A stretch of DNA of 64,000 nucleotides from Gammaproteobacteria bacterium (GCA_040220855.1 JAVJVZ010000063.1:10-64009), one strand, 5' to 3'. Numbered from the stretch's first letter, positions 5,239-30,977 are shown. Numbers and translations are program-made. The notes: generated by a model not told the origin, from the sequence alone.

Positions 5239-7209
5239 ATGCGACGCAATCCCCATCCCAGCGTGGAGGTGCTGCACGGCGAAAGTACCAGCGCGCGCCA
5301 TCAGAGCAGCACTCCGAGATTTCGACGGGCGTTCGTCTTTGGACTGACCCTCGTCGTCTCCGCAACTGCAGGACTGCTCTGGAATTACTCGCGACCTGCC
5401 ATCTACGAAGCAGTTGCGACGGTGCAGACGGTCAAGCCAAAGTCTGTCGACCAACCGAGCACGAGCGCAGACGTGGAACACGTCACGATCCAGAGGCGCA
5501 CCCTGCTCGGCAAACGTTTGCTTGGGCGCGTGGTCGACGAGATGGCCTCCCTGCTTCCAGAACGTGGCCTCGACGCCGAGGAGCTCGCATCCATGCTCTC
5601 GGCAGTGCCGCTCGAGGAAACCAACCTGGTCGAGCTGCGGGCCGTGGGCACCGAGCCGGCTATCCTGCAGACCATCGTCAACACGTGGGCCGACGGCTAC
5701 GAAGCCCTGCGCCGCGAGCAGATCGCGGGTGCACGCGACGCTACTCTGGACGAAGTGCAGGAAGAGTACGATGCCCTGCAGCAGACCATCGCTGCGAAGG
5801 CCGACGAGTTGGCTGCCTTCCGCGAGGCACACGACATCGTCAGCTTGCGCGACAGCGAGAACCGGCCCGCGGCCAAGCTGCGCGGGCTGAACAACGCTCT
5901 GAACGAGGCACAGTCGCGGCTGGTCGAAGCGGAAGCCCGGCGTGAGGCGCTGGCGGTGTCCATCGAGCGCGGCCAGACCGTGGTGCCACGGGATCAGCAG
6001 GCGAACTTGTCACAGAAGATGGCCGAGGCACGCAAGCTCGAGACCCGGCTCGACGACCTGCTGTCGAAGTACACGAGGAAGTTCATCGAGAGCGACCCCG
6101 AGCTGCGCGATTTGCCGAAGCAGCTCGAGGACGCTCGGGTCGAGATCGAGCAGCTCGAGACAGTCGGCCAACGACAAGCCATCGCGCAGGCAGAACAGGA
6201 GGTCGCAGCCGCCCGTGCAGCAGTCGCTCGGATCACCGCCGAGCTCGACGCGCACGAACGGGCGGCTGCCACGTTCGCCGACCTGTTCAGCCGCCACGAA
6301 GCGCTCCACGAGGAGTTGGCAGAGCTGCGTGGCCTGGCCTCCGACAAGCGAGAGCGTATTGCCGCTATCGAGGCGCGCAACTTCAAGAAGTACCCGCCGG
6401 TGGACGTCGTGCAGCGCGCACTGCTGCCGCAAGCGCCTGTCCGTCCGGACTATCATCGCGATGCCGGCCTGATCATTGGTGGTTCGCTGGCTTTGGCGCT
6501 GTTCCTGACCTGGCTCGTCGAATACCTGTTCGGACGGCAAGGCGCGTCGGCGCCGGCGTCACCCGACCTTCGCATCATCGGCACTCAAGGCACTCGTTCT
6601 GTGCTTGAATCTTCGCCTGCGGACAGCGCTATCACCCATACGCCACACGCGCTTGTGCTGGAAAGCGCGCGGCTGCATGTGCTCGCCCCTGCGGAGGTAC
6701 GCCAGCTCCTGGCGGCCGCAGACCCCATGACGGCCGCCTGCATTGCCCTGTTACTGAGTGGCCTGTCCGACGAGGAACTCGCGTTGCTCGACGCCGAAGC
6801 CATCGACCTGCCGTCGCGCACCGTGCGTCTCGAGCACCCGAGGTCCCGTGACATTCGCCTCCCGGAGCCGGTAGTGGCGCTGCTCGGCGAGTGCGTCGAC
6901 GAGATGGGCAGCTACCCCACTCGCGTAGCGGTTGACGAGTTCGACGAGGCGGTGACGGCAGCCGCGATAGACGCCGGACTGGAAGGCGCGAACCAGATGA
7001 ACGCGGCTGCCCTGCGCGCGTCGTATCTGGTCTTCCTTGTCCAGCAGGGCGTGCGGCTATCCGAGCTGCACCGCCAGACCGGCAGGCTCAGCGACACGTT
7101 GTTGAAGGAACTTGCACGCCACGCGCCGCCGGGCGACAAGCTCCCGCTCGCCGAGATAGACACCACCTATCCCCTGTTCGCCACGGGCGACGAGCCAAGC
7201 GCCAAGTAG
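5239..7209 (+). CDS. Wzz/GumC-like polysaccharide chain-length determinant fused to a degenerate tyrosine-recombinase catalytic domain
   Basis: TM1 followed by RPAIYEAVATVQ, a long coiled coil, the Pro-rich VVQRALLPQAPVRP and TM2. Then LAPAEVRQLL..IALLLSGLSDEELALL..IDL..RDIRLP..AGL..AALRASYLVFLVQQGVRLSEL..TGR. ATG 5239 preferred over the ORF-track GTG at 5212. Confidence 0.85.
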   Translation: MRRNPHPSVEVLHGESTSARHQSSTPRFRRAFVFGLTLVVSATAGLLWNYSRPAIYEAVATVQTVKPKSVDQPSTSADVEHVTIQRRTLLGKRLLGRVVDEMASLLPERGLDAEELASMLSAVPLEETNLVELRAVGTEPAILQTIVNTWADGYEALRREQIAGARDATLDEVQEEYDALQQTIAAKADELAAFREAHDIVSLRDSENRPAAKLRGLNNALNEAQSRLVEAEARREALAVSIERGQTVVPRDQQANLSQKMAEARKLETRLDDLLSKYTRKFIESDPELRDLPKQLEDARVEIEQLETVGQRQAIAQAEQEVAAARAAVARITAELDAHERAAATFADLFSRHEALHEELAELRGLASDKRERIAAIEARNFKKYPPVDVVQRALLPQAPVRPDYHRDAGLIIGGSLALALFLTWLVEYLFGRQGASAPASPDLRIIGTQGTRSVLESSPADSAITHTPHALVLESARLHVLAPAEVRQLLAAADPMTAACIALLLSGLSDEELALLDAEAIDLPSRTVRLEHPRSRDIRLPEPVVALLGECVDEMGSYPTRVAVDEFDEAVTAAAIDAGLEGANQMNAAALRASYLVFLVQQGVRLSELHRQTGRLSDTLLKELARHAPPGDKLPLAEIDTTYPLFATGDEPSAK

Positions 7210-7263
7210 GACTCACCGGCGTGATGTCGTTCTGCGCACTGACAAACGAGACCGCATGATGGA

Positions 7264-8136
7264 TTACGGTGTCGCACCTCTCCTCGCTCGCACGCTCATC
7301 AGGCCGATGAGCGCACTGCCGAGCAGCCATGCCGCGCCCGGTAAGGGCACAGACGTGAACGCAGGGGTGAGCAGTGGCGCGCCATCGAAGTCCGCGACCA
7401 GGGTGCTCAGGGATTCGGCCGTTGCATTGCTGCCGCCGGCGCCTGCCATCAGTCCCATGGCGAGGTAGAACTCCTCACCGTTGGTGACGTCGATGCTGAT
7501 ATTGCCTGATTCGACAACGTTCGCGTTCGTCGCGGTGAACTCCAGGAAGTTGTCATCGGGCGAGACGAGCGCCAGCGTGGCGAGCAGGAAAGCTGTCGCA
7601 GAGGGATCCGACGGGTCCACTTCCGGGAATGCCGGTAACTCCGCCTGCGAGAAGAATCCAGCGAAAACGACCAGGCCGGTGAGCGTGTCCGCGTCGGGAT
7701 TGTTGACGGAGCCGGTGAGATTCCACGTCAGCGATAGCGTCTCGCCTGGTCCCGTGTATTCGTAGGCCTGCACCGCTAGGGCCTGCCCGCTGATCCAGCC
7801 GCTGGTGTCTGACGCCGCACCGGCCCTGAGCACAGGAACACCAAGGCCACCCGCGGCGGTCGCGGCGCCGGACGCGAAGCCCGGCGCCGGATAGGCGCCA
7901 CCGAGCGAGACCGCGGCCGACGTGACGTTGTCCCCGCCATCGCTTGCATCCACAGCGAGGGTCGTTGTCAAAGCCAGCAACTCCGGCACGGTGTCGGCGC
8001 CGCAGAAATCGCTCGAACAGGTATACGAACTCGCCGTCGCGAGAGTCCCCCATTCGGTCAGGGTGGTTGCGGCATCGACACTCCTGGCCAACAGGAGCGG
8101 GCAAGCCGCGAACAGGGCAAATGCGATGAATCTCAT
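7264..8136 (-). CDS. VPLP-CTERM sorting-domain protein
   Basis: Signal peptide; C-terminus VPLPGAAWLLGSALIGLMSVRARR. Confidence 0.92.
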   Translation of the reverse strand: MRFIAFALFAACPLLLARSVDAATTLTEWGTLATASSYTCSSDFCGADTVPELLALTTTLAVDASDGGDNVTSAAVSLGGAYPAPGFASGAATAAGGLGVPVLRAGAASDTSGWISGQALAVQAYEYTGPGETLSLTWNLTGSVNNPDADTLTGLVVFAGFFSQAELPAFPEVDPSDPSATAFLLATLALVSPDDNFLEFTATNANVVESGNISIDVTNGEEFYLAMGLMAGAGGSNATAESLSTLVADFDGAPLLTPAFTSVPLPGAAWLLGSALIGLMSVRARRGATP

Positions 8137-8472: not shown

Positions 8473-9564
8473 TCAACGCACGACGATGCCGTTGAGATCG
8501 CCTTGTTCGCGCCAGGCCTTCAGCAGGCGGAAGAACGGTACCGCACCTTCTGGATACAGGTTGTCGAGAAAGCCCTGTCCCTCGTTCTTGCCTTCCTGGT
8601 TGTAGTATCCGGGCGTGCAAATCGCCTGGTATTCGCGCATCGGGCTCGGCCCGGTCACGGGCTTGACCCAGTCAGCCTCGGCCTGCGCCGTGGGCTCGAT
8701 GGACCTTGCATCCCGGTCGAACACTTCCTTCACCAGGTAGGCGATGTGGCGCGCCGGTCCACCCAGCGAGTAGGTGAAATTGAAGGCGAGGCCCGTCTAC
8801 GTAAGCCCCATGTGGAAGCAGTTCGGGAAACCCTGGCTGAGAAAACCATGGAAGGTTTTCACTCCGTCCGCCCAGTAGTCGGTGAGGGTTACGCCGTCGC
8901 GGCCGTAGACCTCGCACTCGGAACTCCGCGTGTAGGCCGTGCTGACCTCGAAGCCGGTCGCGAAGATGATGCAATCGACCTCGTACTCGACGCCGTCGAC
9001 CACGACACCTTTCTCCGTGATGCGCTCGACGCCCTTGCCGTGCGTGTCGACCAGCTCGACATTGGGCTGGTTGAAGCAGGGCAGGTAATCGTCGTTGAAC
9101 AGCCGCCGCTTGCACCATTGGCCGAACCACGGCTTGAGCGCCTCGGCCGTCTGCGGATCCTTGACCGTGCGGGCAACGCGATCGCGCACGTCGTTACCCT
9201 TCTTATAGTCGGCGACTTCGGAGATCAGCCTCATGCGCTCGTCGGAGACATCGCCGCCGTGGGCGGCTAGGATCTCGTAGGTCAGGCGGAAGAAATCCGT
9301 CCACTTGTCCGCGACCATGTCCTCGTCGACCGGCAACCCGGCCAGAATTGAGCAGAAATTCTCGTTGCGCTCGGCCTGCCAGCCAGGCTCGAGCGATTGC
9401 GCCAAGGCAGGGTCGGTCGGCCGGTTCCAGCGCTCATCGACGAACGACGGCATGCGCTGGAACACGTAGAGCTCATGCGCCGACTTCGCCACGCGTGGCA
9501 TCGCCCGCACTACCGTCGCGCGGGGTCCTATGATTCCGCAACTCCGAGCGCCCTTGCCGCGCAA
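8473..9564 (-). pseudogene. Baeyer-Villiger monooxygenase pseudogene
   Basis: Eroded GIIGxxAT, LYVFQRMPS, WCKR, DCIIFATGF and GFPNCF motifs. An in-frame TAG at 8797-8799 splits two same-frame ORFs. The N-terminal FAD-binding part is absent. Confidence 0.9.
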
Positions 9565-9711
9565 GCCAACAGGCTGCCCCTCTGACCGACTACCATAGTC
9601 CTAGCAAGGGCTCTGGCAAAGAACTGGCAGCGCTATTATCTGCCGTATGCGTGCTATGATTACAAGATGTCACGCTTGAATTCTCGTGGGGCATTTCCCA
9701 CTCGCCAGCGC

Positions 9712-10452
9712 ATGCCCAACGACCCGTCTCTCTCCGAACAGGCAACTTTTTACGATGAACGCTGGGCTCGGGATGCCAACGAGGACAGGCTGAACGGTTA
9801 CCAGTTGGCCCGCGCTGCAGCGATATTCGACGCTCTATCCTTCCTAGATCTCAATTTCACCATCCGGAAGATGGAGCCATTTGACATCTGTGATTTCGGA
9901 TGCGGCCGCGGCTGGATTGCAGCGCAGCTCGCGGCCATAGGTCGGGTGACCGGTGTCGATTTGTCGCCACATGGAGTCGCAATTGCTGAGAAGCGCTGGC
10001 CCCACATTCGATTCGAATGCGCAGACATCCTGGAGTACTCGGCACGTGAGCCGTTCGATTTGCTGGTATCGTCAGAAGTGATCGAGCATATCTTGGAAAA
10101 GGATCGATTCGTCGCGGCCGTGGCGCGCAACCTCAAACGCGGCGGCTTCGCCATAATCACAACTCCGAATGCGCGTGCTCGTAGGGCATGGGAATTGGAC
10201 GGCCAACTTTCGCAGCCTATCGAGGAATGGCCATCTCTTTCCGAATTGCGGGACCTGTTCGTTAAGGACTTCGAGATTCTCAGCCACAAGACTTTCGTAC
10301 AGCAGTACACCTACCGCGGCATACACCGCGTTCTAAGTGCGCCCAAGCTCATTAAGTTTCTGCGACAGATCAGGCTTCTGGAGGCTTATGAGGGTTTAGA
10401 GCGCACGATCGGCATAGGACTACATCAAGTCCTCGTTGCGCGGCGGCGCTAG
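9712..10452 (+). CDS. Class I SAM-dependent methyltransferase
   Basis: DFGCGRG, GVDLS, FDLLVSSEVIEH, LKRGG..ITTPN. Alternative start 9667. Confidence 0.92.
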   Translation: MPNDPSLSEQATFYDERWARDANEDRLNGYQLARAAAIFDALSFLDLNFTIRKMEPFDICDFGCGRGWIAAQLAAIGRVTGVDLSPHGVAIAEKRWPHIRFECADILEYSAREPFDLLVSSEVIEHILEKDRFVAAVARNLKRGGFAIITTPNARARRAWELDGQLSQPIEEWPSLSELRDLFVKDFEILSHKTFVQQYTYRGIHRVLSAPKLIKFLRQIRLLEAYEGLERTIGIGLHQVLVARRR

Positions 10453-10461
10453 TGCATCGCA

Positions 10462-11691
10462 GTGAATGAGTTTGGCCTCGACGCCATGGTGCCCGAAGAT
10501 AATCACGGTGCGCTGCCGCCACTCGTGGTTTTCTCGCCAAATCGCTGGGAGGAATCTTGGACCAGTCGCCATCGTATTGCGACTGGACTAGCGGCGCGCG
10601 GCTGGCCGGTAATGTACAACTCCGGACCATTGTCGACTTGGGAACGCCGCTCGGAGTCCTGGACTAAGGCTCCAATTCTTGGCGGCATACGCCGTGAGAA
10701 CGGCCTACTGGTCGATGTGCCGGGGCGTATTGAAGCCTATTGGCCCCGCTCACCTATTTGGACACAGATTGCAGTTCGCCGCCACGCGCGGAGGCTCCGC
10801 CGAACTGTCTGCCGCGAAACGTCGCGACAGCAACCTTTCACGGCATTCCTGTTTCATCCTCGCTACTGGCCCGAGGCCCAGGCCCTAAAGCCTGAGCGCA
10901 TTGTATACTTCGCGTACGATGCCATCTCGCTCGCCCCGGGCTGGACTGAGGAGCAAGCCGGGCTTGAGCGCGCGCTAGTAGCCCGCGCGGATCTTATCGT
11001 TGCCTATTCTCGCAATATGTTTGATTACATGCCGCAGCGTGCTGCTCAAATCGGCCGCGAGATACCGACAGGAGTCGACATCGAGCATTTCGTAGGCGCG
11101 CTGGCTGAACCATGCCCGAAGGATCTCGCACTCATTCCTCGGCCCAGGATCGGGTATACAGGCAATATCAATCAGAAGCTCGACCTCTTAGGGATGTACG
11201 CGGTTGCCCGGGCGGCCCCGGAGTTGAATTTCGTGTTCGTCGGGCCAGCAGGTCCAGGTAACGGAGGAAACTTTCCCGGGCACCCGGTTGAGACGCAGGC
11301 ATGGGAAGACCTGCTAGCGTTGCCCAACGTCCGACACCTTGGGCCAAAGGCATTCACCGACGTTCCCACGTACATGGCAAATATGGATGTTAACGTCATG
11401 TGCTACCGCCTAGAAGGGGGCTGGTGGCAAGCGGGGTATCCTCTCAAAATGCATGAATATTTGGCAGTGGGAAAGCCGGTCGTCGGAACTGCGCTACCAA
11501 CAATCCGTCCCTTTGGTAACGTGATCGATATCGTTGCGGACATAGACCAATGGCTGACAGCACTGCGGCGCGCGCTTGAGCAAGGGGGTATCGGAACGCC
11601 CGAGGAGCGCCGAGCAGTCGCCCAGGAGAACAGCTGGGATTCGCGGCTCGACGTTCTAGACGGCTGGATGAGAGAAGTGATAAGCCCTTAA
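10462..11691 (+). CDS. GT-B glycosyltransferase (GT4/TuaH-like)
   Basis: IPTGVD, PRIGYTGNI, YPLKMHEYLAVGKPVV, ENSWDSR. Confidence 0.92.
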   Translation: MNEFGLDAMVPEDNHGALPPLVVFSPNRWEESWTSRHRIATGLAARGWPVMYNSGPLSTWERRSESWTKAPILGGIRRENGLLVDVPGRIEAYWPRSPIWTQIAVRRHARRLRRTVCRETSRQQPFTAFLFHPRYWPEAQALKPERIVYFAYDAISLAPGWTEEQAGLERALVARADLIVAYSRNMFDYMPQRAAQIGREIPTGVDIEHFVGALAEPCPKDLALIPRPRIGYTGNINQKLDLLGMYAVARAAPELNFVFVGPAGPGNGGNFPGHPVETQAWEDLLALPNVRHLGPKAFTDVPTYMANMDVNVMCYRLEGGWWQAGYPLKMHEYLAVGKPVVGTALPTIRPFGNVIDIVADIDQWLTALRRALEQGGIGTPEERRAVAQENSWDSRLDVLDGWMREVISP

Positions 11692-11717: not shown

Positions 11718-12879
11718 TAGATAGCTGATCCGAATCCCACTACACCTTGAGTGTAGCGAGGGCCTGGTGGTTGCCTGGGAACGGCTGCACAACTTCGAAG
11801 AATCGGATGATGCGCTGCGCGAGGTCGTAGAACCGCGTGCACCGATGATTCCGAGTCACGGTATCGTGCATGGCCTTCCACAGGCGCTCTATCTGGTTCA
11901 CCCACGGCGAGTAAGTAGGCTGGAACACCACCCGGAACTTCGGGTTCTTGCTCAGCCATCGCTCGGTGAGTTCGCTCTTGTGGATGATGTAGTTGTCGAG
12001 GATGAAGTTGATACGGTTGGCCGCGCGATAGGTTTTGCGAATGGCCTCGAGCAGCTTGATGAACAGCGTGCTGTCCTTGGTCGGATGCTCGGCCCAGACC
12101 AACTTGCCGGTATGAGCATGGAGGGCACCAGCCACGTAGTGCTTCTCGTTCTGGCCAGGCGTCAGCACACCGACCTGCTGACCATGACGGGTCCACACCG
12201 CACCGGTCTTCGGATTGAGGTCGATGTCGGCCTCGTCGGCATAGAAAGTCTCGGCTCCCCGCCGTCGCTGCAATGCCCGCCGGACCGCCCGCATCTTGCT
12301 GTTTTTGTTTGGGTCTCGCCGAACCAGAATAGGACGCGTTCGGCGCCAGACATAGCCCAGCTGCGGCAAAATGCGGCGCACCGTCGAAGCATGGATGGAG
12401 ACGCCAAGCTGCCGTTCGAGCTCCAAGGCGAGAAGCTCGGAGGTCCAGCTCGCGCGCAAGTACCCATAGTCTTCCGGCGTCTTTTCAAGCAGTTGGATCA
12501 ATTGCTCGAGCACTTCGTCGGTTACCGTCCAGCGACTGCGTCCCACCGGCGCCGGCTCCAGCCCAGCTTCCCCGTATTCCTCATACAACCCGCGCCAGCT
12601 CTGCACCGTCGAGCGCGCCGCGCAAACCGACCGCGCCACCTCGCTCACCGTTTTCCCCTCAGCAAGGTGCAACAGCGCCAAAGCGCGTCGCACATGGTTC
12701 TTATCCTTCGATTTCTGCACCGTACGCTGCAACCGACGACGCGTCGAACGCCGCATCGCCTGTATACTCGAGTCCATCGGGTGACCTCTTCTCGATCTTG
12801 GGTTGGGTAGCAGCTCCCATGATCGCAGAATGTCACCCGTGTTTGCTTCAAGTGATCGGGATTTCGGAACAGCTATCTA
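11718..12879 (-). mobile_element. Complete IS630-family insertion sequence
   Basis: Ends CTAGATAGCTGATCCGAA (11717) and TTCGGAACAGCTATCTAG (to 12880): inverted repeats in a CTAG context with duplicated TA. Length about 1.16 kb. Confidence 0.95.
11740..12777 (-). CDS. IS630-family transposase
   Basis: N-terminal HTH; DDE motifs YADEAD, ILDNY, NQIERLW. Confidence 0.96.
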   Translation of the reverse strand: MDSSIQAMRRSTRRRLQRTVQKSKDKNHVRRALALLHLAEGKTVSEVARSVCAARSTVQSWRGLYEEYGEAGLEPAPVGRSRWTVTDEVLEQLIQLLEKTPEDYGYLRASWTSELLALELERQLGVSIHASTVRRILPQLGYVWRRTRPILVRRDPNKNSKMRAVRRALQRRRGAETFYADEADIDLNPKTGAVWTRHGQQVGVLTPGQNEKHYVAGALHAHTGKLVWAEHPTKDSTLFIKLLEAIRKTYRAANRINFILDNYIIHKSELTERWLSKNPKFRVVFQPTYSPWVNQIERLWKAMHDTVTRNHRCTRFYDLAQRIIRFFEVVQPFPGNHQALATLKV

Positions 12880-13260: not shown

Positions 13261-13845
13261 TTAATTGTGTTGTCGGGCCGCCCCGGTCTCCAGGTCGACC
13301 TTCAAGCCGATAACCGCCGACTGAATGACCCGGTAGCAAGTCTTGAAATACTCGTCACTCAAAGACATCGGATCATGAATGTGCGGGCGTGCAGGCTCGG
13401 CCCATAACCCGAGCAGTGCGACCTGTGCGCCGGTGCCGTTCAGTTTCTTTTGCAGAAAGCGAGCTTGGCGGACTTCCATCACCAGGAAAAGATCGGATCC
13501 TCTAACCGCAAAATCGGAAAGATCGGTGGCGCTATGGCTGGTCAAATTGTGCCCAAACGCACCGGCGATCTCGATCGCCTTCGGGAAGGCCGGAATCCCA
13601 GTGGATGTCGAAAGTCCAAGCGAAGCACTGTTCAAGCCGGCCTCACGGGCTAGGAATTCGCCATAGGGGCTGCGGCAAACATTACCCAGACAAACGAAAA
13701 CGAAGCGTTCCACACGCAGCAGATCGACATGTTCAAATCGTTTCAGCCGCCCAACCATCCGCTCAATATTTGCCAACTGGAGCCGAATCCATCCGCGGTA
13801 TGTACCGTAGCGCGCGTTCATCAATCGATCGTACAAGCCAGACAT
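13261..13845 (-). CDS. Low-molecular-weight protein-tyrosine-phosphatase family protein
   Basis: P-loop FVCLGNVCRSP; HIHDP acid motif. Confidence 0.92.
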   Translation of the reverse strand: MSGLYDRLMNARYGTYRGWIRLQLANIERMVGRLKRFEHVDLLRVERFVFVCLGNVCRSPYGEFLAREAGLNSASLGLSTSTGIPAFPKAIEIAGAFGHNLTSHSATDLSDFAVRGSDLFLVMEVRQARFLQKKLNGTGAQVALLGLWAEPARPHIHDPMSLSDEYFKTCYRVIQSAVIGLKVDLETGAARQHN

Positions 13846-13850: not shown

Positions 13851-14553
13851 GATCGTGTCCCCAGCAGCAATGTAAGAAGCGGCCACAGTGATGGTTCCGG
13901 TGCCGTTCGAGTCACCACAATTCGACGAACTAGAGGGGACCACCACGATGACCAAGGTCAGCATGCCGCTTAAAGAGCTATTTGAGAAGGGCGCGAAGGC
14001 GGATTTCGTGCGCGAAATGATCCAGTTCATGGCCCAGTGGATGGAAGTAGACGTCGAGGGCCTGTGTGGGGTGGTCCATGCCAAGCGCAGCGAAGAGCGC
14101 AACAGCTACCACTATAGCTCACTCGAGCGACGCTGGGACACGCGGGCCAAGAGCACCCCGATGAAGGTCGCGAAGCTCCGCGGCTTGATGGACGAGGCTG
14201 AGCCTGACTTGCTCTCCTATCTCGACTTCCCGCGCGAGCATCGTACGATGCTGCAGAGCACGGACACGCTAGAGCGGCTGAGCAGCAAGGTCGAACGGCG
14301 CTCGGACGTGATTGGCACTTTCCGCAACAAGGTAGCCATCATCCCTCTGGTCGGGGCGCTGCTGCTCGAGCAGAGCGACGACTGGGCGATTCATCGACGG
14401 TACATCTGGCTGGAAACGCTTGCCACCGTTGCGGAGAACGGCTCGGTCAGGCTCGCGGCTACCGCTAGCTAACGCTAACAGACACCACGTATCCCCACGG
14501 CATCAACATCATAGACAGACGCCGTTTTTTGCTCCATGTCTCCGGACACAACC
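13851..14553 (+). mobile_element. Internally deleted IS256-family element (remnant ORF about 13948-14472)
   Basis: The N-terminal ERRWDTRA...KLR is joined directly to the C-terminal LMDEAEPDLLSYLDFPREH...STDTLERL...LLEQSDDW. Ends GATCGTGTCC and GGACACAACC are imperfect inverted repeats. Confidence 0.85.
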
Positions 14554-14877
14554 CTTGCTTAGTCTTCGACTTGTGCAAGCTCCAACCCACGCAGTCATTG
14601 TCAAAGGACGGAATCGTCGCGCGCATAGAGCCGCTAATGAGCGAGTACAACAGCAAGGGTGCTTGGCGCGCCAATGGCAGGTAGCCCACGTCCCCGCAGA
14701 TGACCGGCTTAGGCTAGATTGATCGCTGCCGCATGCAGTCGATCTCGTACTAATCCTAGTCACGGGATAGACTCATGCGTGGTGTTCGGCCATGTCCTCT
14801 TGCAATGGCCGCATCTGTTGCGGTCGCAACACGCTCTGAGACCACCAAGAACCGTGTGTTCCAATCCCCTCGATGGC

Positions 14878-15843: not shown

Positions 15844-15862
15844 CCAATCGTAAAGCGATCGA

Positions 15863-17071: not shown

Positions 17072-17391
17072 TGCGTCAATTCTCTATCTTCTTCGCGACC
17101 GAACTGTCTTCGTACGAAACCTCGCTGAATCAAACGCAAGGCGACAAACGAATATCTATAAATAAGCCAACGCATAGGAACCTCCGCAGCGATAAAGCGG
17201 ACTGGAAACGATACATCGGATCGAAACACCAGTTGCTCAATCCGCGCCTGGATTTCAGTTGGCAATAATGTGGGGCACGGCTAGGCGTGACGATACGCGG
17301 CACCAAGGGGAAACATCACCTCGTGGCCGCATTGCATGCTGCGACCGACCAAGCCGCCTAATGCTCAAGTTAAAAGTATCGACACGGGAAT

Positions 17392-20022: not shown

Positions 20023-20023
20023 A

Positions 20024-21635: not shown

Positions 21636-22836
21636 TGTAGAAGTTCAGACCCGATCTGACAGTTCCCAGTTTTGAAGAGTTGTCTGTCAGCCGGAGTCTA
21701 AGCCAGCTTCTTCTCCTTCCAGATGGCCTTGCCATCAATCAGCGTCTGCATCGGTAAGCATCCACAGCACATCTTGCCTCGATGCGTACGCTCAGTATTG
21801 TATTCCTCGACCCAGGCATCAAGGTCGTGTTGCAGCGATTCGATGTCTGCGTAGACCTCCTTGCGGAACGTCACTTGGTAGAGCTCCTGCAACAGCGTCT
21901 TATGGAAGCGCTCGCAGATACCGTTCGTCTGCGGTGACTTCGCCTCGGTCTTCGTATGGTCGATGTCGTTGACCGCCAGGTACAGCTCATAGTCGTGTTG
22001 CTCGACGCGGCCGCAGTACTTGGTACTGCGGTCCGTCAGAATGCGCAGCAGTGGCAGCTCGTGCGCTTCGAACAACGGGAGAACCCGGTCGTTGAGCAGA
22101 TCGGCCGCGGTGATGGGCGTCTTGGTCGTATATAGCTTCGCCGCCGCCACCTTGCTGTAGGTGTCAACGAAGGTCTGCTGGTAGATACGACCAACGCCCT
22201 TCAGTGTGCCAACGTAGAACGTGTCCTGAGAGCCGAGATAGCCCGGGTGGGCCGTCTCAATCTCGCCGGCCGCTTCGTCGTCGTAGCGCCTTTTCTCCAA
22301 TGCCGCGACCTGCGCTTCGGTCAGAATGAGGCCCTCGGCGGCCACCTTCTCCTTCAGCGCCCGTAAGCGGTCGCGGAAGCAGTCCAGGTTGTTCCTCATC
22401 CAGGCCCCGCGGACACCGGTCGGGGAGACGAAAATCCCGCGCTTACGCAGCTCGTTGCTCGCCCGCACCTGGCCATGGGCCGGCTGCTCGAGCGCGTAGG
22501 TGATGACCGCTTCCTCGACCGCCGAATCGATACGATTCTTCGGATTCGGTTGACGCCGATTCGAATCGACCAACGCCTCGACACCACCTTCGTCTACCGC
22601 CGCTTTGCAGCGATAGAATGTATCCCGCGACAGGCCCATGACCTTGCAGGCCCGGGACACATTGCCCAGCCCTTCTGCCAGATTGAGCAAGCCGACCTTG
22701 TGCTTAATGACTTTCTCGCTAATATTCAACATGAGGGTTACCTCTCTATGGTTTTGATGTGGCTTGGTAACTCCATCAAAATCGGGAACCCTCGCTTTCT
22801 TCAAGCACGGCGTCAGATCAGGTCGAGACTTCTACA
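21636..22836 (-). mobile_element. IS481-family insertion sequence
   Basis: 25-bp inverted repeats TGTAGAAGTTCAGACCCGATCTGAC / TGTAGAAGTCTCGACCTGATCTGAC (4 mismatches), TGT...ACA ends. Flanks ATTGAAA / ATCGAAA look like an eroded target duplication. Confidence 0.93.
21698..22732 (-). CDS. IS481-family transposase
   Basis: KHKVGLLNLAE..NVSRACK HTH; GSQDTF, ILTDR, SPQTNGICERF. Confidence 0.95.
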   Translation of the reverse strand: MLNISEKVIKHKVGLLNLAEGLGNVSRACKVMGLSRDTFYRCKAAVDEGGVEALVDSNRRQPNPKNRIDSAVEEAVITYALEQPAHGQVRASNELRKRGIFVSPTGVRGAWMRNNLDCFRDRLRALKEKVAAEGLILTEAQVAALEKRRYDDEAAGEIETAHPGYLGSQDTFYVGTLKGVGRIYQQTFVDTYSKVAAAKLYTTKTPITAADLLNDRVLPLFEAHELPLLRILTDRSTKYCGRVEQHDYELYLAVNDIDHTKTEAKSPQTNGICERFHKTLLQELYQVTFRKEVYADIESLQHDLDAWVEEYNTERTHRGKMCCGCLPMQTLIDGKAIWKEKKLA

Positions 22837-24293: not shown

Positions 24294-25148
24294 CTAAGTC
24301 GTTTCATCTACCAGGTTGCGCAACCAGGCGAGCGTGGCGTCCTCGACCTGCGCGCGCCAGGCGGCGCTCGAGAAGGTGTGGTTGGCCTCCGCCAGCGCGA
24401 CGGTCTGCACGCAGTCGCGTGCCGCTGCGACCTGCCACGCGCGACTCTGTGCGGCGAGCGCGCGAAATTCTGCAGCGGTCAGGTCGTCACCGCTGAGGAG
24501 CAGCAGCGACGGTCCGGTGAAGCGTTGCCAGCCCTCCAGCATGCGTACGATGAATTGCTGGGCGCCTTGCCCGGACACGGGGCGGCCGCGACCCATCGCG
24601 CGCCCGAGGTACCCGGCGAGGCTTTCGAACGAGTCGCGCCAGTCGACATCGAAGCGCGCCAGCTTGTGCCAGAAATCGCGGCTGCCAAGCCGTCCCCAGT
24701 AGTAGGTCTGCAGACGCGCACGTGCCTCTGTGTGCGGCGAGTGCACCCAGGGGTTGGCCAGCGCAAGCGCGCTCACACGGGCATCACGGTGCGCGTACAT
24801 CATCGCCGCCGACGCGGCATCGCACAGTCCCCACAGTACGACCCGCGTCACCCCGGTCCGCTCAACGAGCTCATCCACGGCGACGCGAACATCCTCGTCG
24901 ACGGCTTCGAAGTCGCGCGCCGTTCCGCCACTGTCACCGATCCCGCGGTAATCGAAGCGGAACACGGGGTAGCCTGCCGCCGCGAGACGGCGTGCCAGCA
25001 GCACGAACTGGCGGTGGCTGCCCACGCGGGTCTGCGGCCCACCGACGATGATAACCACGCCAAGGTCGGCAGCGGCCTGCGCGGTATGCAGGATGCCGAT
25101 CGCCGTGTCTTCCCCAATCGGGAATGCGAAGGCCGCTTCTTCAGGCAT
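24294..25148 (-). CDS. Hydrolase 1, exosortase A system-associated (alpha/beta fold)
   Basis: VGGPQTRVGSHRQF, FDYRGIGDS, WGLCDAAS, NPWV, ANHTFS. Confidence 0.92.
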   Translation of the reverse strand: MPEEAAFAFPIGEDTAIGILHTAQAAADLGVVIIVGGPQTRVGSHRQFVLLARRLAAAGYPVFRFDYRGIGDSGGTARDFEAVDEDVRVAVDELVERTGVTRVVLWGLCDAASAAMMYAHRDARVSALALANPWVHSPHTEARARLQTYYWGRLGSRDFWHKLARFDVDWRDSFESLAGYLGRAMGRGRPVSGQGAQQFIVRMLEGWQRFTGPSLLLLSGDDLTAAEFRALAAQSRAWQVAAARDCVQTVALAEANHTFSSAAWRAQVEDATLAWLRNLVDETT

Positions 25149-25161
25149 CACACTCACCGCG

Positions 25162-25971
25162 TCAATCTTCCAGCAGCGCGGTGCACGTCGCCGCGGTGAC
25201 TGCTCCGGGTGCGGCAATCTCCTGGCTGGTCCAAAATTGCTCGGCGGAAACGACCCGCGTCTCGACCACGGCGCCGCAGGACGTCGCCGCTGCCGCGAAG
25301 CGAGAGAAAGGCGGCGTCGGCGTCGCGTCACCACCCGTGCGGACCTCGAGCAGCGTGGTCCGCGCCGCGGCCGCCAACGTCGCCGGGTCGAGGCGGGCTG
25401 CCGCAAATCCCTCGCTCAGCGCCGGCCCAAGCGGATAACCAGCGATTTCGACCGACCGGCCCGCTGTCAACTCGCTCTTCATCCACGCAATGGACTCATC
25501 GCGGCCGGCGAACTTCGCCGCCATCACGCGCAGGCGCATGAATTGCTGCAGCAGGCGCTCGCCGTCGAAGACCGGCTGCCAGGCGACCACGCGCGCATTG
25601 GCGACCAGTCCCGACACGTGGAGGAACAGCGCACCGCTACGGATCGCGAGCAGTGCCGGAGCACCCGCCCCTGCTGCACCGTGAAACTGGCGAGCAAGCG
25701 TGGCAACCTCCTCGCACCAATCGGGCCACGTCACCTCGCCAAAGCTGCCCGCGCTATCACCGGTTCCGGACAGGTCGGGCACCAGCACTTCACACCCCTG
25801 CAGGGTAAGCGTTCGTGCCGTCTCGGCAAGCAGGCGCCGACTCTTGTTCATTTCCTCGGCGAAGGGCGGCAACACCAGCACGCTCAGCCGAGGAGGACAC
25901 GTGGGGCGGAAGTGGAGCGTGAACAGGCGCCTGCCTGCTACCTCCCGGAAGGCGGGTTCCATCACCACCAT
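25162..25971 (-). CDS. Hydrolase 2, exosortase A system-associated
   Basis: PPFAEEMNKSRR, DLSGTGDSAG, WQPV..G, EIAGY, FW. Confidence 0.92.
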   Translation of the reverse strand: MVVMEPAFREVAGRRLFTLHFRPTCPPRLSVLVLPPFAEEMNKSRRLLAETARTLTLQGCEVLVPDLSGTGDSAGSFGEVTWPDWCEEVATLARQFHGAAGAGAPALLAIRSGALFLHVSGLVANARVVAWQPVFDGERLLQQFMRLRVMAAKFAGRDESIAWMKSELTAGRSVEIAGYPLGPALSEGFAAARLDPATLAAAARTTLLEVRTGGDATPTPPFSRFAAAATSCGAVVETRVVSAEQFWTSQEIAAPGAVTAATCTALLED

Positions 25972-26021
25972 GATCTGGTCGTCAACGGTTGCGGGTCGCT
26001 GCCGTCGGGATCCTGCCGTCG

Positions 26022-26273
26022 TCAGTCGCCGACCTTGTGCGCGACAAATGCACTGAGCGACCCAACGGTCTCGAACACCGAGGCATCGACCTCATCGTCC
26101 TCGATGACGATGCCGTAGTGATCCTCCAGCGCCGTCAATACCGAAACCACGGCCATGGAGTCGAACTCGGGCAACTCCCCGAGCAGCGCCGTATTCTCGG
26201 TCAACGTGGTCTGAGCCGGATCGAGGCCGAGGACATCAGAAAGAATTCGACAAACGTCTTCGTTCATGGTCAT
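26022..26273 (-). CDS. Acyl carrier protein
   Basis: LPEFDSMAVV phosphopantetheine Ser motif; FETVGSL. Confidence 0.93.
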   Translation of the reverse strand: MTMNEDVCRILSDVLGLDPAQTTLTENTALLGELPEFDSMAVVSVLTALEDHYGIVIEDDEVDASVFETVGSLSAFVAHKVGD

Positions 26274-26308
26274 GACTGGTAAGCTTAAGAGAAACCTGTG
26301 GGCTGCGG

Positions 26309-27562
26309 TCAGCGGCGATCACGGCGCGCCACGTCCTCGACGAGCGCGATGAAGCGCTCGGCCTGGGCGCCGCGAGAACAGGAAGCCGCAAAAGCCGGGT
26401 TCCCATACGCTCGATCACGATCGGGTGCGATCTGCGCAATCGCCTCGCGGAGCACGCCGGCAATCGCCACCGCGTCATCCAGCGGCGCGATCCATTCTAC
26501 ACCGCCAGCGCGCAGGACACCGGCCGTGTCGCCGTCCGGATCGGTGAAGCCGAGGATAGGCCGCCCAGTCCGAAAATACTCGTAGGCCTTGGCCGGAATC
26601 TGGAAATTGCAGCCGGCCGACTGGAACAACAGCAGGCCGTCGGCACGGCTCATCTCGACCAGCGCCTCACGGTAGCCCACGGGCGGATCGAGAGATATGA
26701 CGGCGGACAACCCGAGTTCTTCGATGAGCGGCCGATACAGCGCATCGTGCCCGGTCGCGCGCAGTGAGAACACCACCTGTCCGGGTGTCACGATGCCCTC
26801 GTCGATCAGCCTCCGCACAGCGGCGAAGAAGCTGCGGGGATCCCGTTCCTCCGGATAGAGCACGCCCGCATGCACGAAACGCAACGGCCCGCTGCGCCGA
26901 TAGCCGTCGCCGACCTCCCCAAGCGCCTCGTCGAACAGGATCTCGTCGTAGCCGTTCTCGATGACGTGGGCACGGTCCTGCAGCGCATCACCGAAGGTCT
27001 CGCGGTAAAAGGCTAATGCACCGGGAGCGGTGAAGAGCAAGCGAGAGGCGTGCTTGACGGCGCGTTCTTCGATCCAGCGAAAGGCTCGCCATTTGCGCGG
27101 CTCGTTCGGATAACCATCTTGCGCCATAGGATCGCGGAAATCTGCGATCCACGGGATGCCCGTTAAACGATGCAGGAAAAAGCCGATGACGTGAGCGGTC
27201 GCTATAGGATAGGTAGAGAATATAACATCTGGCCGCGATCTGACGACGCGCCAAAATCCGAGCATAGCGCCAGATATGCTCCAGGATGACCAAGGATCCG
27301 GGATCGCCAGACTCCTGAGATACCTTCCGCGCCAGGAGAGCGCTCGTGTAGTGTCGACCGCAGGCGCGCGCTCTACGCGCGTGCCTGCAGGAATCATTTG
27401 CGAGTTAGTCTCGCGGTAGTCCGGAAGAGCGTTTCTGGTAACGGTAAGCACCGTGACCTCGTGCCCTTGACGCCTCAGCTGACGAACGAAACTCAGGGTC
27501 CTATGCACTCCGCTACTTTGTTGAATCGGAGGAAAGTGAAACGCAATCACGAGCACGTACAT
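26309..27562 (-). CDS. GT4 glycosyltransferase
   Basis: IAFHFPP..SSGV, PWIADFRDP, IENGYD, IPAKAYEY. Confidence 0.92.
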   Translation of the reverse strand: MYVLVIAFHFPPIQQSSGVHRTLSFVRQLRRQGHEVTVLTVTRNALPDYRETNSQMIPAGTRVERAPAVDTTRALSWRGRYLRSLAIPDPWSSWSISGAMLGFWRVVRSRPDVIFSTYPIATAHVIGFFLHRLTGIPWIADFRDPMAQDGYPNEPRKWRAFRWIEERAVKHASRLLFTAPGALAFYRETFGDALQDRAHVIENGYDEILFDEALGEVGDGYRRSGPLRFVHAGVLYPEERDPRSFFAAVRRLIDEGIVTPGQVVFSLRATGHDALYRPLIEELGLSAVISLDPPVGYREALVEMSRADGLLLFQSAGCNFQIPAKAYEYFRTGRPILGFTDPDGDTAGVLRAGGVEWIAPLDDAVAIAGVLREAIAQIAPDRDRAYGNPAFAASCSRGAQAERFIALVEDVARRDRR

Positions 27563-27612
27563 GGGGTTATCCTGGCTTATGCTTAACCGTCCAACCGGAT
27601 AAGCATCTCGAC

Positions 27613-29991
27613 TTAGTCTCCGAAGCGTTCCGGCGAAGCCCATCGCTGAAGTAGCCTTTTTCCCTTGATCAACGGCGTCATCCAATGTCTCGGATCGAGC
27701 GCTTCCACTCCCCAGATGATATCCCTCGTGTCCGCCCAGTACTGCTTATAGCCGTCGTCCCCGGTGAGGAAGTCGATGCACGAAACGCGATCTTCATCGA
27801 TAAAATGCCGAATGAGCCACCCCATTAACACTGAGCCCACGGAATGTTTCTTGAACTCACGGTCGTAAGCCAGCTTGAACAAGCATGCCGATAGACTTTC
27901 GATCAGCCATATCTGAGCTGCGACGGGCTTGCCGTTCAGAAACAACAGTCCGAGCCTCAATTTACCCTCGCGCGCCCAAGTTGTGCAGATATCCCGAATG
28001 AAATTGGGGAAGGGTTCCCTCGTCTTCCAGCTTCGTTGATATACCGCGTCGTATGCGTCTAACGCTCCTTGGAGATCGCTCGTATCCGTCACAAGTCGAT
28101 ACTCGACATCGAACATAGCAGTCAGGCGCTTAGCTTTACGAATCAGAAGGTTACGCAAGAATCCCGGCCGCCCTTCAAGATAATCAGTGAAATGCCCGGG
28201 AACCACATTGCTGCGCCAGTTCGCATAACACTTGTATGCCCGAGCTGAGTAGCCTGCGCCTCTGAACGCTACGACCAACTGCTCAATTATCACCGGATCT
28301 GTTCCGACCGCAGCCAATTCAATCTTGGGAAACGGACTGCGTTGGGCTATCAAGTAGCGAGGAATGCACTTCAGGAGTTCGTCTAGTTCTCCTTCATCAA
28401 TGTCAATGTCGGCCAAATACGAGTACGAAGCGGCATAGAAGTTGGCGAGGTTTTTCAGTTTCCACGCGCCGAATAAGCCACTCCTCTGAATCATCAGAGG
28501 CATCACCACCCTGTTTCCGCTCGGTCCCCTGGAAATCAGATAAATCGGATCGTCGTTTGCTCGTAGGAGGTGCTTTTCTACCGACGAGAACCAAGCTTTG
28601 CTCGAGAACGCAGCGACGCTCCGCGCCCCCCCCGGCGCCGATAAAGTGCTCGTTGGTATATCCGCAATGGACTTCTCAATTAATATCTCTGAATCTGCTC
28701 CGGGTCCTATCAACGTTGCCGCATCGCCTTGAGAAAAGTGCGGGATAACCATGGAGGGGTATCTCCACAAAAAACGCAAGCGGGTGCGGAAAGCGCTCCC
28801 AATGCGATACAGGAGTCTAAAGAGCGCAATGCCAAATGGGAGAAGGTCATCATTGTGGAGATACGGAAACGTAACTGAACGCCCATGGAAACTAAAGCTG
28901 CCAACTTGCCAAGCCTGTTGCAAATAGAGCAAAGGCTCACGCTCCGTATCCAGCCATACAGCTTCCCGGCTCGGTCGAATTACTTCGTCGCCTGTGCCCA
29001 TGGTTTGTTGCGTAAACTCGATCAGGGGCAGTCGAACGCCGCCCGCAACGCATAGATCAACCCAGTAGTCAGATCGGCCCACTGTCGGCTCTATGACCCA
29101 CAAAGTTCCGTCGCAAGCCATCTTTACTTCAAGCGATACAGGACCACTCAAGTTCAACCCATTAAAGAATCTAAGCGTCTGCTCCCGCACTTCGGGTTCC
29201 CACACGACTTCCGCTGCAGTCGTCTGCCCCATGGCGCGCGGTAGCGATGCAAGCTTTCTGCCGACAACATCGGCAACAACCCGTCCATGATCTAAGTACA
29301 TCGCACAGAAATAGAGGGCCGTATCGCCTCCTCCGATCCATCTCTGAAGCAACAATGGAAACGCGTCGGGAAATCGGCGCGCAACGTTCAAGCACTCCTG
29401 CACACTTTCTACGCGCAGCGCCTTGAAAGCCGACAGCGGCCTTACCGGCTTGATAATGGCTGGGTAAAAATCACCTTGCAGTGAGGATTCGTAAATGTCG
29501 CTTTGGGTAGCCAGCGTCACGGACTCAGGGTAGGGCAGCCCCGCAGCTCGACATCGAGCTTCAATGTTGTCTTTCGATAGGAGAGGTATAATCCGGTCAC
29601 GACAACCGCTCCAGCTAAGACGATAGCTTCTCTCTAATTGTGGCCAGTTCTCCGCGAAGAGCCGAACCATATTGTCGTTTGTCGGGAACAAGATGGGCCG
29701 CTCTGCCCAATTCTGAGATTCCTTGAGGTCTACCAGCTCTGCTATCACGGATTGGGCGTTGATATTCTCCGATGCACGCACTTCAGCAAGCCGGGTTCGA
29801 AATCCAGGCAGGCGCGGATTGCTTTCCAATGCGATGACTCGGATTCCAGCTCGTGCGAGATCCCGCACAACCGCCAGACCATGTGCGCACAGTCCGACAA
29901 CGATTGCCGGAGGTGCCGACCTTCCCGGCAACTCCAGCATCGTTGGTAGGCTGGGCTCGCCCTTACTGATTCTAGATTTATCGTCCGGCAT
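27613..29991 (-). CDS. ATP-grasp ligase fused to a GNAT (CelD/BcsL/FemAB-like) domain
   Basis: N-terminal half PILFPTND, PAIIKP, LLLQRWI, SLEVK, IEPTVGR. C-terminal half PVAAQIW, FKLAYD, SVGSVL, IDFLTGDDGYK. Start inferred at MPDDK. Confidence 0.85.
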   Translation of the reverse strand: MPDDKSRISKGEPSLPTMLELPGRSAPPAIVVGLCAHGLAVVRDLARAGIRVIALESNPRLPGFRTRLAEVRASENINAQSVIAELVDLKESQNWAERPILFPTNDNMVRLFAENWPQLERSYRLSWSGCRDRIIPLLSKDNIEARCRAAGLPYPESVTLATQSDIYESSLQGDFYPAIIKPVRPLSAFKALRVESVQECLNVARRFPDAFPLLLQRWIGGGDTALYFCAMYLDHGRVVADVVGRKLASLPRAMGQTTAAEVVWEPEVREQTLRFFNGLNLSGPVSLEVKMACDGTLWVIEPTVGRSDYWVDLCVAGGVRLPLIEFTQQTMGTGDEVIRPSREAVWLDTEREPLLYLQQAWQVGSFSFHGRSVTFPYLHNDDLLPFGIALFRLLYRIGSAFRTRLRFLWRYPSMVIPHFSQGDAATLIGPGADSEILIEKSIADIPTSTLSAPGGARSVAAFSSKAWFSSVEKHLLRANDDPIYLISRGPSGNRVVMPLMIQRSGLFGAWKLKNLANFYAASYSYLADIDIDEGELDELLKCIPRYLIAQRSPFPKIELAAVGTDPVIIEQLVVAFRGAGYSARAYKCYANWRSNVVPGHFTDYLEGRPGFLRNLLIRKAKRLTAMFDVEYRLVTDTSDLQGALDAYDAVYQRSWKTREPFPNFIRDICTTWAREGKLRLGLLFLNGKPVAAQIWLIESLSACLFKLAYDREFKKHSVGSVLMGWLIRHFIDEDRVSCIDFLTGDDGYKQYWADTRDIIWGVEALDPRHWMTPLIKGKRLLQRWASPERFGD

Positions 29992-30556
29992 AGCGATCCT
30001 TTGGTTCAACGGCGGGGTGTGATAGCGCACGTCTTGTCGTTTCTGCCGGAGTTTTGAGGAGCGCACCAAGCGCAGAAAATATAGCGGCTGAGCAAGACGC
30101 GTCTTGAACGGATTCCGTTGGTCGCAATAAGACCATAAGGGCTCTGTTCCGCCAAACGGCACAAGGTGAGTCCACCGTGGTTCAGGGGGCACCGCAACGT
30201 GATTGCGACATTTCCGACATCCAGGCGACGGATATCGTAGGCATGCGGGTGCCCACAAAACAGTAGCGCCGCTGCATGTGGGCTTACTGGACAACCAGCA
30301 CTACCGTCGCGTCGGCGGCCCGGTGAATCTTCAAAAAAAGGCTTTTCGAAATTTGAATACAGACGGTTCTAGGGCGTCCCGGGTTGGCCTGTGGAATGTT
30401 ATATCGCTCTCCAGTAACCCGACGAGCGACGCACTCAAGTAGGTCCATTAATGACCGCGCGGCATCGGAAGCTCAGACGATTGAAACAGATGCTCCAATA
30501 GTCCGGAACGTGGAAGGTTGCGTGCCGAGTTTCTTACACGAACTATTTGGCGGCGA

Positions 30557-30977
30557 CTCGAGGCTGAAGCCATCGACCGGCCGTCGCGCCGAGTGCGTTT
30601 CGACGATCCGAGAGCGCGTGACATTCCCCTGCAAGAAGGTCATAGATATGCTACTCGGCGAATGTATCGACGAGACGGGCAACGTGCCCACGCGGATTGC
30701 AAAGAGCGAGCTCGACGAGTCGGTGACCGTTGCCGCCATAGACGCCAGGTTGGAGGCCGCGGGCCATGACGACGCGATCACCCTGCGCGTGACCTACCTG
30801 ATGTTCCTTGTCGATCTGTGCGCGCGGCTATCCAAGGTACCCGCCACGGCGGTCGGCTCCACGACACGTTGATGAACGAGCGCACGCTACGCGCCTGCTG
30901 ACCGCAGCCTCTTGCTTACCGAGGCAGGCACTGTCTACCCGCTGTTCGCCACAGACGATGGGTCACGGGCCACATGA
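30557..30977 (+). pseudogene. Frameshifted copy of the C-terminal recombinase-like domain of the 5239-7209 gene
   Basis: Successive frames give LEAEAIDRPSRRVRFDDPRARDIPL / LLGECIDETGNVPTRIAKSELDESVTVAAIDARLE..TLRVTYLMFLV..RLS / GRLHDTLMNE / TVYPLFATDDG*, colinear with 6787-7209. 60 of the first 74 nt are identical by hand alignment. Confidence 0.92.

Follow-up and report, generated by a model that had tools for sequence, protein, structure and literature searches.

A truncated and frameshifted probable relic of a co-polymerase/recombinase-like fusion gene beside exopolysaccharide-type genes in a gammaproteobacterial draft genome

A 64,000 nucleotide (nt) stretch of DNA from a gammaproteobacterial genome (GCA_040220855.1; G000:C63:10-64009, the window) contains at 5212..7209, on the plus strand, an intact fusion gene, the 665 amino acid (aa) open reading frame (ORF) of which joins a Wzc/PslE-like body to a C-terminal tyrosine recombinase fold. 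The end of this gene is present a second time 23.77 kb downstream, in the same orientation, beyond a group of exopolysaccharide (EPS)-type genes. The second copy is probably a non-functional relic of the 3' end of another copy of the fusion gene, gained by duplication or through capture of a near-identical allele, with the block between the copies a patchwork put together in several events. In the first-pass annotation of this DNA the two copies had been seen as a bracket around the EPS genes, in which the gene was suggested to anchor the swapping of glycotypes. It is most likely, however, that the second copy is an ordinary rearrangement scar in a variable region rich in insertion sequences (IS), and not a device for swapping glycotypes.

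All coordinates are those of the window, and the contig (C63) starts 9 nt before it. Genome G000 is a draft of 85 contigs with a GC content of 67.8% and an estimated contamination of 1.9%. It was compared with five congeners (G001-G004 among those cited) and with 81 genomes of its bacterial family, each species being represented by one genome.

The repeat consists of the last 140 codons and the stop codon of the fusion gene at 6787-7209 (+), here called copy A and delimited by the repeat search and the alignments, and of the sequence at 30557-30977 (+) that matches these codons, here called copy B. Copy B is truncated at its 5' end, lacks the first helices of the domain and carries three frameshifts. 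A repeat search of the window finds 60 of 74 nt (81%) identical between 6787-6860 and 30557-30630, and in a local MAFFT alignment of the full copies 298 of the 420 ungapped columns are identical (71%), with three indels that take up four gap columns. Compared with A, the indels are +1 near 30637, -1 near 30841 and -2 near 30883, and the pieces of B fall in three frames when it is read as it stands. In the register of A, 77 of 138 residues agree between the copies and no stop codon interrupts B; the two proteins end in YPLFATGDE (A) and YPLFATDDG (B). The alignment, the repeat search and the translations in this way bear out the first-pass description of B as a frameshifted, 5'-truncated paralog in the same orientation, together with the identity at its start and the two endings that were quoted. 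Within the genome the copies match by blastn with an E-value of 3e-51 and are the only two found in a genome-wide search. The repeat is real and far beyond chance.

The homology between the copies has sharp limits, with position 30557 at its start and the stop codon at its end. The flanks are unrelated, the observed local alignment score being reached by 42 of 300 shuffles for the upstream flanks and by 266 of 300 for the downstream flanks. Immediately 5' of B, 262 nt of junction DNA (30295..30556, GC 0.53) are unrelated to the fusion gene and are not repeated elsewhere in the genome. A search of the genome for the 5' part of B's gene was likewise negative. The longest run of identity between A and B is 13 nt.

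Such a pair could be produced by faulty assembly or binning, the contig joining DNA from different organisms and B coming from another genome. The number of contigs, the estimated contamination and the strong shifts in GC along the contig would be in keeping with this, and no public run was found to hold the junction (two metagenome runs, word share 0.06 each). Since the copies are only 71% identical, however, duplication or collapse by the assembler would not be expected. The junction at 30556/30557 contains no repeat, genus-type genes lie on both sides of the block, and A and B are mutually closest among the 151 domains of the tree described below, which argues for a single lineage. An artefact of this kind is therefore very unlikely.

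The domain tree was built by maximum likelihood, with support from the Shimodaira-Hasegawa-like approximate likelihood ratio test (SH-aLRT), from 150 near-complete C-terminal domains and B; 11 of 161 rows had incomplete domains and were dropped, and B was entered in the register of A with X at the breaks. A and B pair with an SH-aLRT of 100. The end branch of A measures 0.054 and that of B 0.50, and the row next nearest to the pair is 1.26 away. An old duplication, one of two origins offered in the first-pass annotation, fits this placement of the copies as sisters. The other origin, a cassette that brought its own allele, fares less well: a distant donor is disfavoured by the sister placement and by the tenfold asymmetry of the branches, because it would give two long branches or a non-sister placement, but a donor with a near-identical allele is compatible with the tree.

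Substitution rates tell how B has changed. Over 138 codons the comparison of A with B gives a synonymous rate (dS) of 0.50, a replacement rate (dN) of 0.33 and a dN/dS of 0.66. Four genes of the contig compared with their congener orthologs, those for a linalool dehydratase/isomerase-family protein (Ldi), a cupin and orf290 and the fragment of a Baeyer-Villiger monooxygenase (BVMO), have a dS of 0.51-0.89 and a dN of 0.06-0.14. With a dS similar to that of these genes and a much higher dN, B carries around three times the usual replacement load. Among the residues that are conserved in the family and kept in A, it has replaced the invariant G109 and the nearly invariant Q108, and in the DAGL motif it has replaced the glycine, a residue that does not vary in the nine-row alignment A3. 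Taken together, the tree, the substitution rates and the lost residues place the separation of A and B within this lineage. Their split would date from about the time at which the species of the genus diverged, and on these rates B appears to have been without constraint for essentially all of the time since.

In the history proposed here, the DNA upstream of the cupin gene would at first have held another copy of the fusion gene or a near-identical allele. The 5' three-quarters of this copy, B, would have been lost at the junction with low-GC accessory DNA (30556/30557), through one or more illegitimate events connected with the build-up of accessory DNA in the IS-rich, tRNA-Asn-associated region, and the same processes may have truncated the nearby BVMO, TetR and Mutator genes. 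B would then have drifted unconstrained for about as long as the species of the genus have been apart. The outcome would be the present 23.8 kb patchwork, in which two non-EPS genes conserved in the genus (one of them truncated) lie with low-GC genes of EPS type, two intact IS, an IS fragment and a higher-GC segment common to a congener. The order of these events is inferred, as is the choice between duplication in place and a one-sided illegitimate join. Because the copies are too different to recombine efficiently and the domain is without its catalytic residues, exchange of the block would be driven neither by DNA homology nor by the protein.

Relic gene fragments and IS occur at the edges of capsule, O-antigen and EPS loci and of genomic islands. 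The arrangement in this window resembles these in that a truncated and frameshifted remnant borders low-GC polysaccharide genes on one side and backbone on the other, with IS and truncated genes nearby. It is unlike them in that the remnant is a paralog of a gene that is intact 23.8 kb away, and in that this intact gene is not a conserved locus flank in relatives.

Several points weigh against the proposed history. Duplication in place and replacement by a near-identical allele are inseparable, and the latter comes close to a displacement of the resident gene. The nearest outgroup is distant, so that the root on the A-B branch and the tenfold asymmetry rest on 134-138 alignable residues, and dS may be underestimated given the strong bias of the genome in GC at third codon positions (GC3). 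The left edge of B is the exact right edge of the low-GC DNA, as one-step capture with an illegitimate right-hand join would produce. The comparison also draws on one genome per species and on an 85-contig draft, in which this contig starts inside an IS.

In a one-step displacement, incoming DNA with its own fusion allele and downstream genes would have been taken up by homology-facilitated illegitimate recombination. One join would have been a homologous crossover, within the resident gene or ahead of it, and the other an illegitimate join inside that gene, which left the 3' end of the resident as the relic. The geometry fits, with the relic downstream, in the same orientation and truncated exactly at the low-GC border. 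The flanks of A and B differ as they should, the region that holds A (1832-7272) has no nucleotide match in the five congeners, and the gene after B is present in congeners. The tree is harder to accommodate: A and B are sisters with nearly all of their divergence on B, which means that the alleles were almost identical at the time, and this is hard to reconcile with a donor that had different downstream genes. Two genus-type sequences, orf290 and the truncated BVMO, separate A from the low-GC EPS genes. The contents of the block, with three IS or pieces of IS and an insert of high GC that is collinear with G003, also point to several separate events. A single displacement is thus an unlikely explanation, and the relic with its surrounding patchwork is better accounted for by duplication, or near-identical allele capture, and several later events.

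Flanking genes serve homologous swapping in O-antigen and capsule loci. The fusion gene and its partial copy could be imagined as conserved flanks of this kind, a standing anchor between which sets of EPS genes are exchanged by homologous recombination. Two copies in direct orientation, EPS-type genes and IS between them, and an N-terminal part related to polysaccharide co-polymerases are features that would suit such a system. At 71% identity, however, and with no identical run longer than 13 nt, the copies offer no stretch long enough for efficient homologous exchange, and the relic is frameshifted and has lost invariant residues. The gene is in none of the five congeners, and the fusion-gene loci of relatives are without EPS neighbours by each of the comparisons given below (tblastn with 28 proteins, neighbour annotation, and distances to GT2 and Wza). 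A standing anchor is highly improbable, and the first-pass proposal that the gene anchors glycotype swapping is not supported, given its absence from the congeners, the 13 nt run and the mosaic nature of the interval.

A further comparison is with silent cassettes, such as the pilS copies in Neisseria. B would in that case be a promoterless partial copy, a donor for gene conversion of the C-terminal domain. It is 5'-truncated and in the same orientation, it covers only the most variable, C-terminal part, and it has no in-frame stop in the register of A. A single copy with three frameshifts that has lost family-invariant residues makes a poor donor, however, and no identity block is long enough for RecA-type exchange (13 nt at most). 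The length of the B branch is compatible with neutral drift. That B serves as a silent cassette is scarcely credible, and a decayed relic remains the preferred reading.

The distribution of the fusion gene bears directly on any link with EPS. It was found in none of the five congeners; weak profile matches in four of them correspond to ORFs some 310-325 aa long that are taken as Xer-like. A profile search identifies a true family member in 16 of the 81 family genomes, in differing contexts, and the fusion gene is therefore accessory. For the surrounding genes, up to 40 kb around the fusion gene was compared in 10 family relatives, and the neighbours were also scanned in one metagenome-assembled genome (MAG). 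When 28 proteins of the window were compared with the loci of the 10 relatives by tblastn, the fusion gene was found in 10 of 10, the BVMO in one and nothing else. Sets of neighbours are common only within genera. Among 20 annotated neighbours in six genomes there is no glycosyltransferase, flippase, polymerase or exporter; they include DUF898 with an M48 peptidase, SPFH, malate synthase, cyclic nucleotide monophosphate (cNMP)-binding regulators, LemA and a short-chain dehydrogenase/reductase (SDR), as well as one acyltransferase_3 and one tyrosine phosphatase. In G007 the fusion gene adjoins a Y_phosphatase3 gene.

Distances to EPS-type genes point the same way. Of 80 GT2 matches across five genomes, a single one, the weakest, is closer than 20 kb to the fusion gene, and none of 12 Wza matches is. 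A single-protein scan gave two MAG loci. In the Gammaproteobacteria MAG the nine neighbouring ORFs include topoisomerase IV, cytochrome c, a CHASE histidine kinase, an ATP-cone/AAA protein, a polyprenyl synthetase and CNP1, and two are without a match; glycosyltransferases, flippases, polymerases and exporters are missing among these nine as well. The fusion gene is not tied to EPS loci in these 11 other genomes. The earlier argument that the position of the gene twice beside EPS genes supports a functional link with them is thus not borne out: A and B are one lineage-specific pair rather than two independent observations, and the homologs of relatives have no EPS neighbours. Even in this window, 2.5 kb of DNA with two unrelated genes separates A from the first low-GC EPS gene, and B meets an EPS gene only across the truncation junction.

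The intact gene probably starts at the Met at residue 10 of the 665 aa ORF, since M10 is nearly invariant in the family. Hydropathy peaks at residues 40-58 and 418-436 correspond to two transmembrane (TM) segments around a periplasmic part. The ORF has no Pfam domain match, and Wzz and GNVR are not reached at E <= 0.01. The sole Pfam row at this threshold, Occludin_ELL, scores 20.7 bits against a cut-off of 31.2, covers the coiled-coil part and was taken as spurious. TIGR03007, the chain-length determinant of the XrtA system, matches the ORF with an E-value of 2.5e-12 and 45.8 bits, which is below its cut-off of 278.85. In a full-length family profile, the part between the hydrophobic segments matches Wzc (2.5e-13) and PslE (9.1e-12), and the same profile also matches Xer/Int proteins at 1e-10 to 1e-12. 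The protein accordingly shows the two TM segments and the helical periplasmic homology of polysaccharide co-polymerases (PCP) and falls short of the curated thresholds for them.

The C-terminal domain was rightly described as recombinase-like in the first-pass annotation. A profile of 32 domains matches the solved tyrosine recombinases IntI4 (1.9e-12), XerD (1.2e-11) and XerA (5.3e-10). An AlphaFold (AF2) model of the domain has a predicted local distance difference test (pLDDT) value of 92.3, and with this model Foldseek gives XerA, the Staphylococcus aureus integrase, XerD and the Tn1549 Int as top matches (XerA at E 4.4e-6, TM-score 0.65), with Cre also matched. A word-based homolog search returned three proteins, and an exhaustive HMMER search was needed for a census of the family. 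With the last 161 residues as query, HMMER finds 337 representatives of 50% identity clusters at E <= 0.001. The best match to the C-terminus of the fusion gene, other than itself, is 37% identical, and members of the family are usually 30-40% identical to one another. The family is widespread, mostly in the Pseudomonadota. In 80 of 80 matched proteins of at least 600 aa (range 625-796 aa) the domain forms the last ~170 residues, and 68 matched proteins shorter than 350 aa are probably fragments.

The catalytic residues were checked in 149 family rows aligned with 14 Xer-like ORFs of the same bacterial family. At the position of the first catalytic Arg, Arg is not among the five commonest residues; the family has Ser, Thr or Ala and A has Ser. 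Both catalytic Lys positions are unconserved. His is likewise outside the five commonest residues at the first catalytic His position, where the family has Glu or Ala and A has Ala. The second catalytic Arg is kept in 123 of the 149 rows and in A. At the last catalytic His position, His is found in 11 of the 149 and A has Arg, and the nucleophile Tyr is kept in 117 of the 149 and is Leu in A. The domain therefore has the fold and the sequence homology of the tyrosine recombinases (PF00589) without their set of catalytic residues. The N-terminal core-binding (SAM-like) domain and the size of ~300-400 aa are also not found in the fusion family. Judged from its residues, most of the catalytic ones being gone, the C-terminal domain is not a working recombinase; by its profile and structure matches, the protein is a recombinase-like domain fused to a co-polymerase-like body.

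Comparison with characterised proteins sets out where the family stands. It resembles Wzc (PDB 7nhr and others) and PslE (PDB 9v6l) in its periplasmic part and the two flanking hydrophobic segments, and is unlike Wzc in having no BY-kinase domain. Unlike the co-polymerases, the fusion gene is outside EPS loci in relatives, and the genome has separate bona fide TIGR03007 proteins on contigs C11 and C16. Both contigs (C11 at 4.7-12.4 kb, C16 at 23-42 kb) carry complete exosortase (EpsH/XrtA-type) loci, each with a TIGR03007 determinant and Wza. With XerC, XerD, XerA, IntI4 and phage integrases the domain has the fold of the catalytic domain and detectable homology in common. It differs from them in lacking the core-binding domain and most catalytic residues, and in being fused to a membrane protein.

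Clusters of 654-691 aa proteins in the ESM Atlas are named 'putative GumC family protein', with PF00589 on 20-24% of members and PF02706 on 13%, and the architecture is therefore already auto-annotated in databases. A literature search, judged by titles and the starts of abstracts, found no study of a co-polymerase/tyrosine-recombinase fusion. The intact gene would thus belong to an uncharacterised family of co-polymerases with a dead recombinase domain on the predicted cytoplasmic side, in the position of the kinase of Wzc, and would usually be encoded alone, among housekeeping genes and at a distance from polysaccharide loci.

What lies between A and B is not one cassette but a mosaic, in which at least five segments can be told apart and some genes are truncated. 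GC stays at 0.52-0.61 across most of 9-24 kb and 27-31 kb and is 0.63-0.73 beyond 31 kb, and gene GC in the interval ranges over 0.52-0.69. The first-pass description of a lower-GC block followed by host-like DNA is thus sound in outline and from 31 kb onward. It does not hold at 5-9.5 kb (fusion gene, orf290 and BVMO fragment) or at 24-27 kb, where GC is also host-like, or at 1-4 kb, to the left of A, where GC is low again.

Next to A is orf290 (7264..8136, -), a genus-conserved non-EPS gene with 80-81% nt identity to G002:C100 and G003:C5, a dS of 0.51-0.55 and a dN of 0.10 against congeners, and no Pfam or NCBIfam match. Its neighbours in G002 and G003 map to contig C57 of G000. The BVMO fragment follows (8479..9564, -), matching an NCBIfam PtlE-like profile at positions 227-475 of 587. 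It is without ~256 N-terminal codons, tblastn with the BVMO of G050 covering residues 257-620, and it is cut at ~9565, the exact start of the low-GC DNA. The fragment is 85% identical at the nt level to G001:C13; several intact BVMO paralogs are present in the genome (C61, C17 and C56), and a search of contig C63 gave no match to the missing N-terminus. Both orf290 and the fragment have a host-like GC3 of 0.77-0.85.

The low-GC DNA begins with a methyltransferase and a GT1 glycosyltransferase (9667..11691, +; GC 0.56-0.59). These are followed by an intact transposase ORF of the IS630 family (11740..12777, -; Pfam DDE_3 6.4e-26 and HTH domains), a low-molecular-weight phosphotyrosine phosphatase (LMW-PTP) that is Wzb-like (13261..13845, -; Pfam LMWPc 3e-17) and a Mutator-family transposase fragment (13888..14472, +) that matches Pfam profile positions 304-377 only. 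The fragment is internally deleted, its two blastn pieces being ~650 nt apart in full copies on C29 and C39. EPS-type genes occupy 14719..21481 (GC 0.52-0.58) and comprise orf374, an ATP-grasp gene, GT2, an FkbM-type methyltransferase and a Wzx flippase. Beyond them is an IS with an rve-type integrase core and an intact ORF (21698..22804, -; Pfam HTH_29 and rve_3), a partial copy of which, 92% identical, is found on C41. Of the three IS elements that had been placed between the copies, two are therefore intact, but 13888-14472 is only the deleted Mutator-family fragment.

A higher-GC segment at 24294..27685 (-; GC 0.61-0.69) encodes an alpha/beta hydrolase, orf269 and GT4. The stretch 24.3-27.2 kb is collinear with G003:C191 in three pieces of 67-72% nt and 48-61% aa identity. 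In G003 this trio adjoins genes that are found on contig C64 of G000, and part of the 'EPS block' may therefore be older DNA of the genus rather than imported. The last gene before B (27613..30294, -; GC 0.54) encodes an 893 aa protein with ATP-grasp and FemAB-like GNAT (Acetyltransf_6) parts. A separate ATP-grasp gene lies at 15863-17071. Together, these suggest decoration of a polysaccharide with amino acids or peptides.

No multi-TM candidate for a Wzy-like polymerase is seen in the hydropathy of the unannotated ORFs, and contig C63 has no matches to Wza or to a bona fide PCP. The block is not therefore a complete export system. Neither is the DNA at 7.2-30.6 kb an integrase-mobilised island, as it contains no integrase gene and no paired att repeats. 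EPS-type genes do lie between the copies, as had been stated, but the bracket is imperfect: the interval is mosaic and a gene for a PEP-CTERM sorting-signal protein (799..1449, +; Pfam PF07589, 7.1e-7) lies outside it.

At the left end of the window, 1..130 is the end of a multi-copy IS with an IS630-like inverted repeat, which matches 11717-11749, and marks a contig break. The same sequence is found, 100% identical, at the ends of contigs C60, C68, C66 and C18 (five contig ends in all), which explains several of the assembly breaks. The IS630-family element at 11717-12810 is a relative of this IS, the two being 82% identical in the inverted repeat.

A 51 nt 3' fragment of tRNA-Asn(GTT) at 1781..1831 (+) forms an att-type repeat and the right end of an island. 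It is 96-100% identical to sequences in all five congeners and to C11:39899-39947, and ARAGORN finds no whole tRNA at 1781-1831. The intact tRNA-Asn occupies C11:39872-39947. The ORF behind it, a putative P4-type integrase by the reading of its N-terminus, is interrupted by an IS where the contig ends (C11:39872-40888 region). Contigs C11 and C63 probably adjoin in the genome, with an island integrated at tRNA-Asn between them. In G003:C147 two copies of the tRNA-Asn repeat are 10 kb apart, and islands may therefore have a hot spot at tRNA-Asn across the genus. Islands that are linked to tRNA genes and carry P4-type integrases are a known kind, and the fragment in this window, with the intact tRNA on C11, resembles them. 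The island ends at 1831, however, to the left of the A-B block, and the 23.8 kb block is unlike such islands in having no second att repeat and no integrase; the sole match to the tRNA-Asn repeat in the window is at 1805-1829. Between the island and the fusion gene is a fragment of a TetR-family gene that encodes the C-terminal domain only (4626..5045, -; Pfam TetR_C_11 5.5e-11).

To the right, the first host-like gene after the relic encodes a ChrR-like cupin (31114..31602, +; Pfam Cupin_7) and is 81-82% identical at the nt level to genes of G004 and G001. Its neighbours differ in congeners, those in G004 and G001 mapping to other contigs of G000. The Ldi gene is at 33342-35324 (Pfam Ldi 1.3e-84) and has two matching places each in G001 and G004. 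The cupin gene, Ldi and the genes between them are not syntenic with congeners.

The bracket of two copies around EPS genes looked like a ready model of surface-polysaccharide type exchange, and no new exchange mechanism should rest on it. What it yields instead is a map of boundaries in which the end of a tRNA-Asn island, a truncated BVMO, mosaic EPS genes and a relic can be placed. It also draws attention to a fusion, as yet unstudied, in which a co-polymerase carries a dead recombinase domain and which is untied to EPS loci elsewhere. Tentatively, the domain may still bind DNA or a nucleic-acid-like ligand, in which case the protein, anchored in the membrane, could connect an envelope polymer with the chromosome or with gene expression, and the relic would stem from a duplication of this module within the lineage. 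The fusion family may deserve an experiment of its own.

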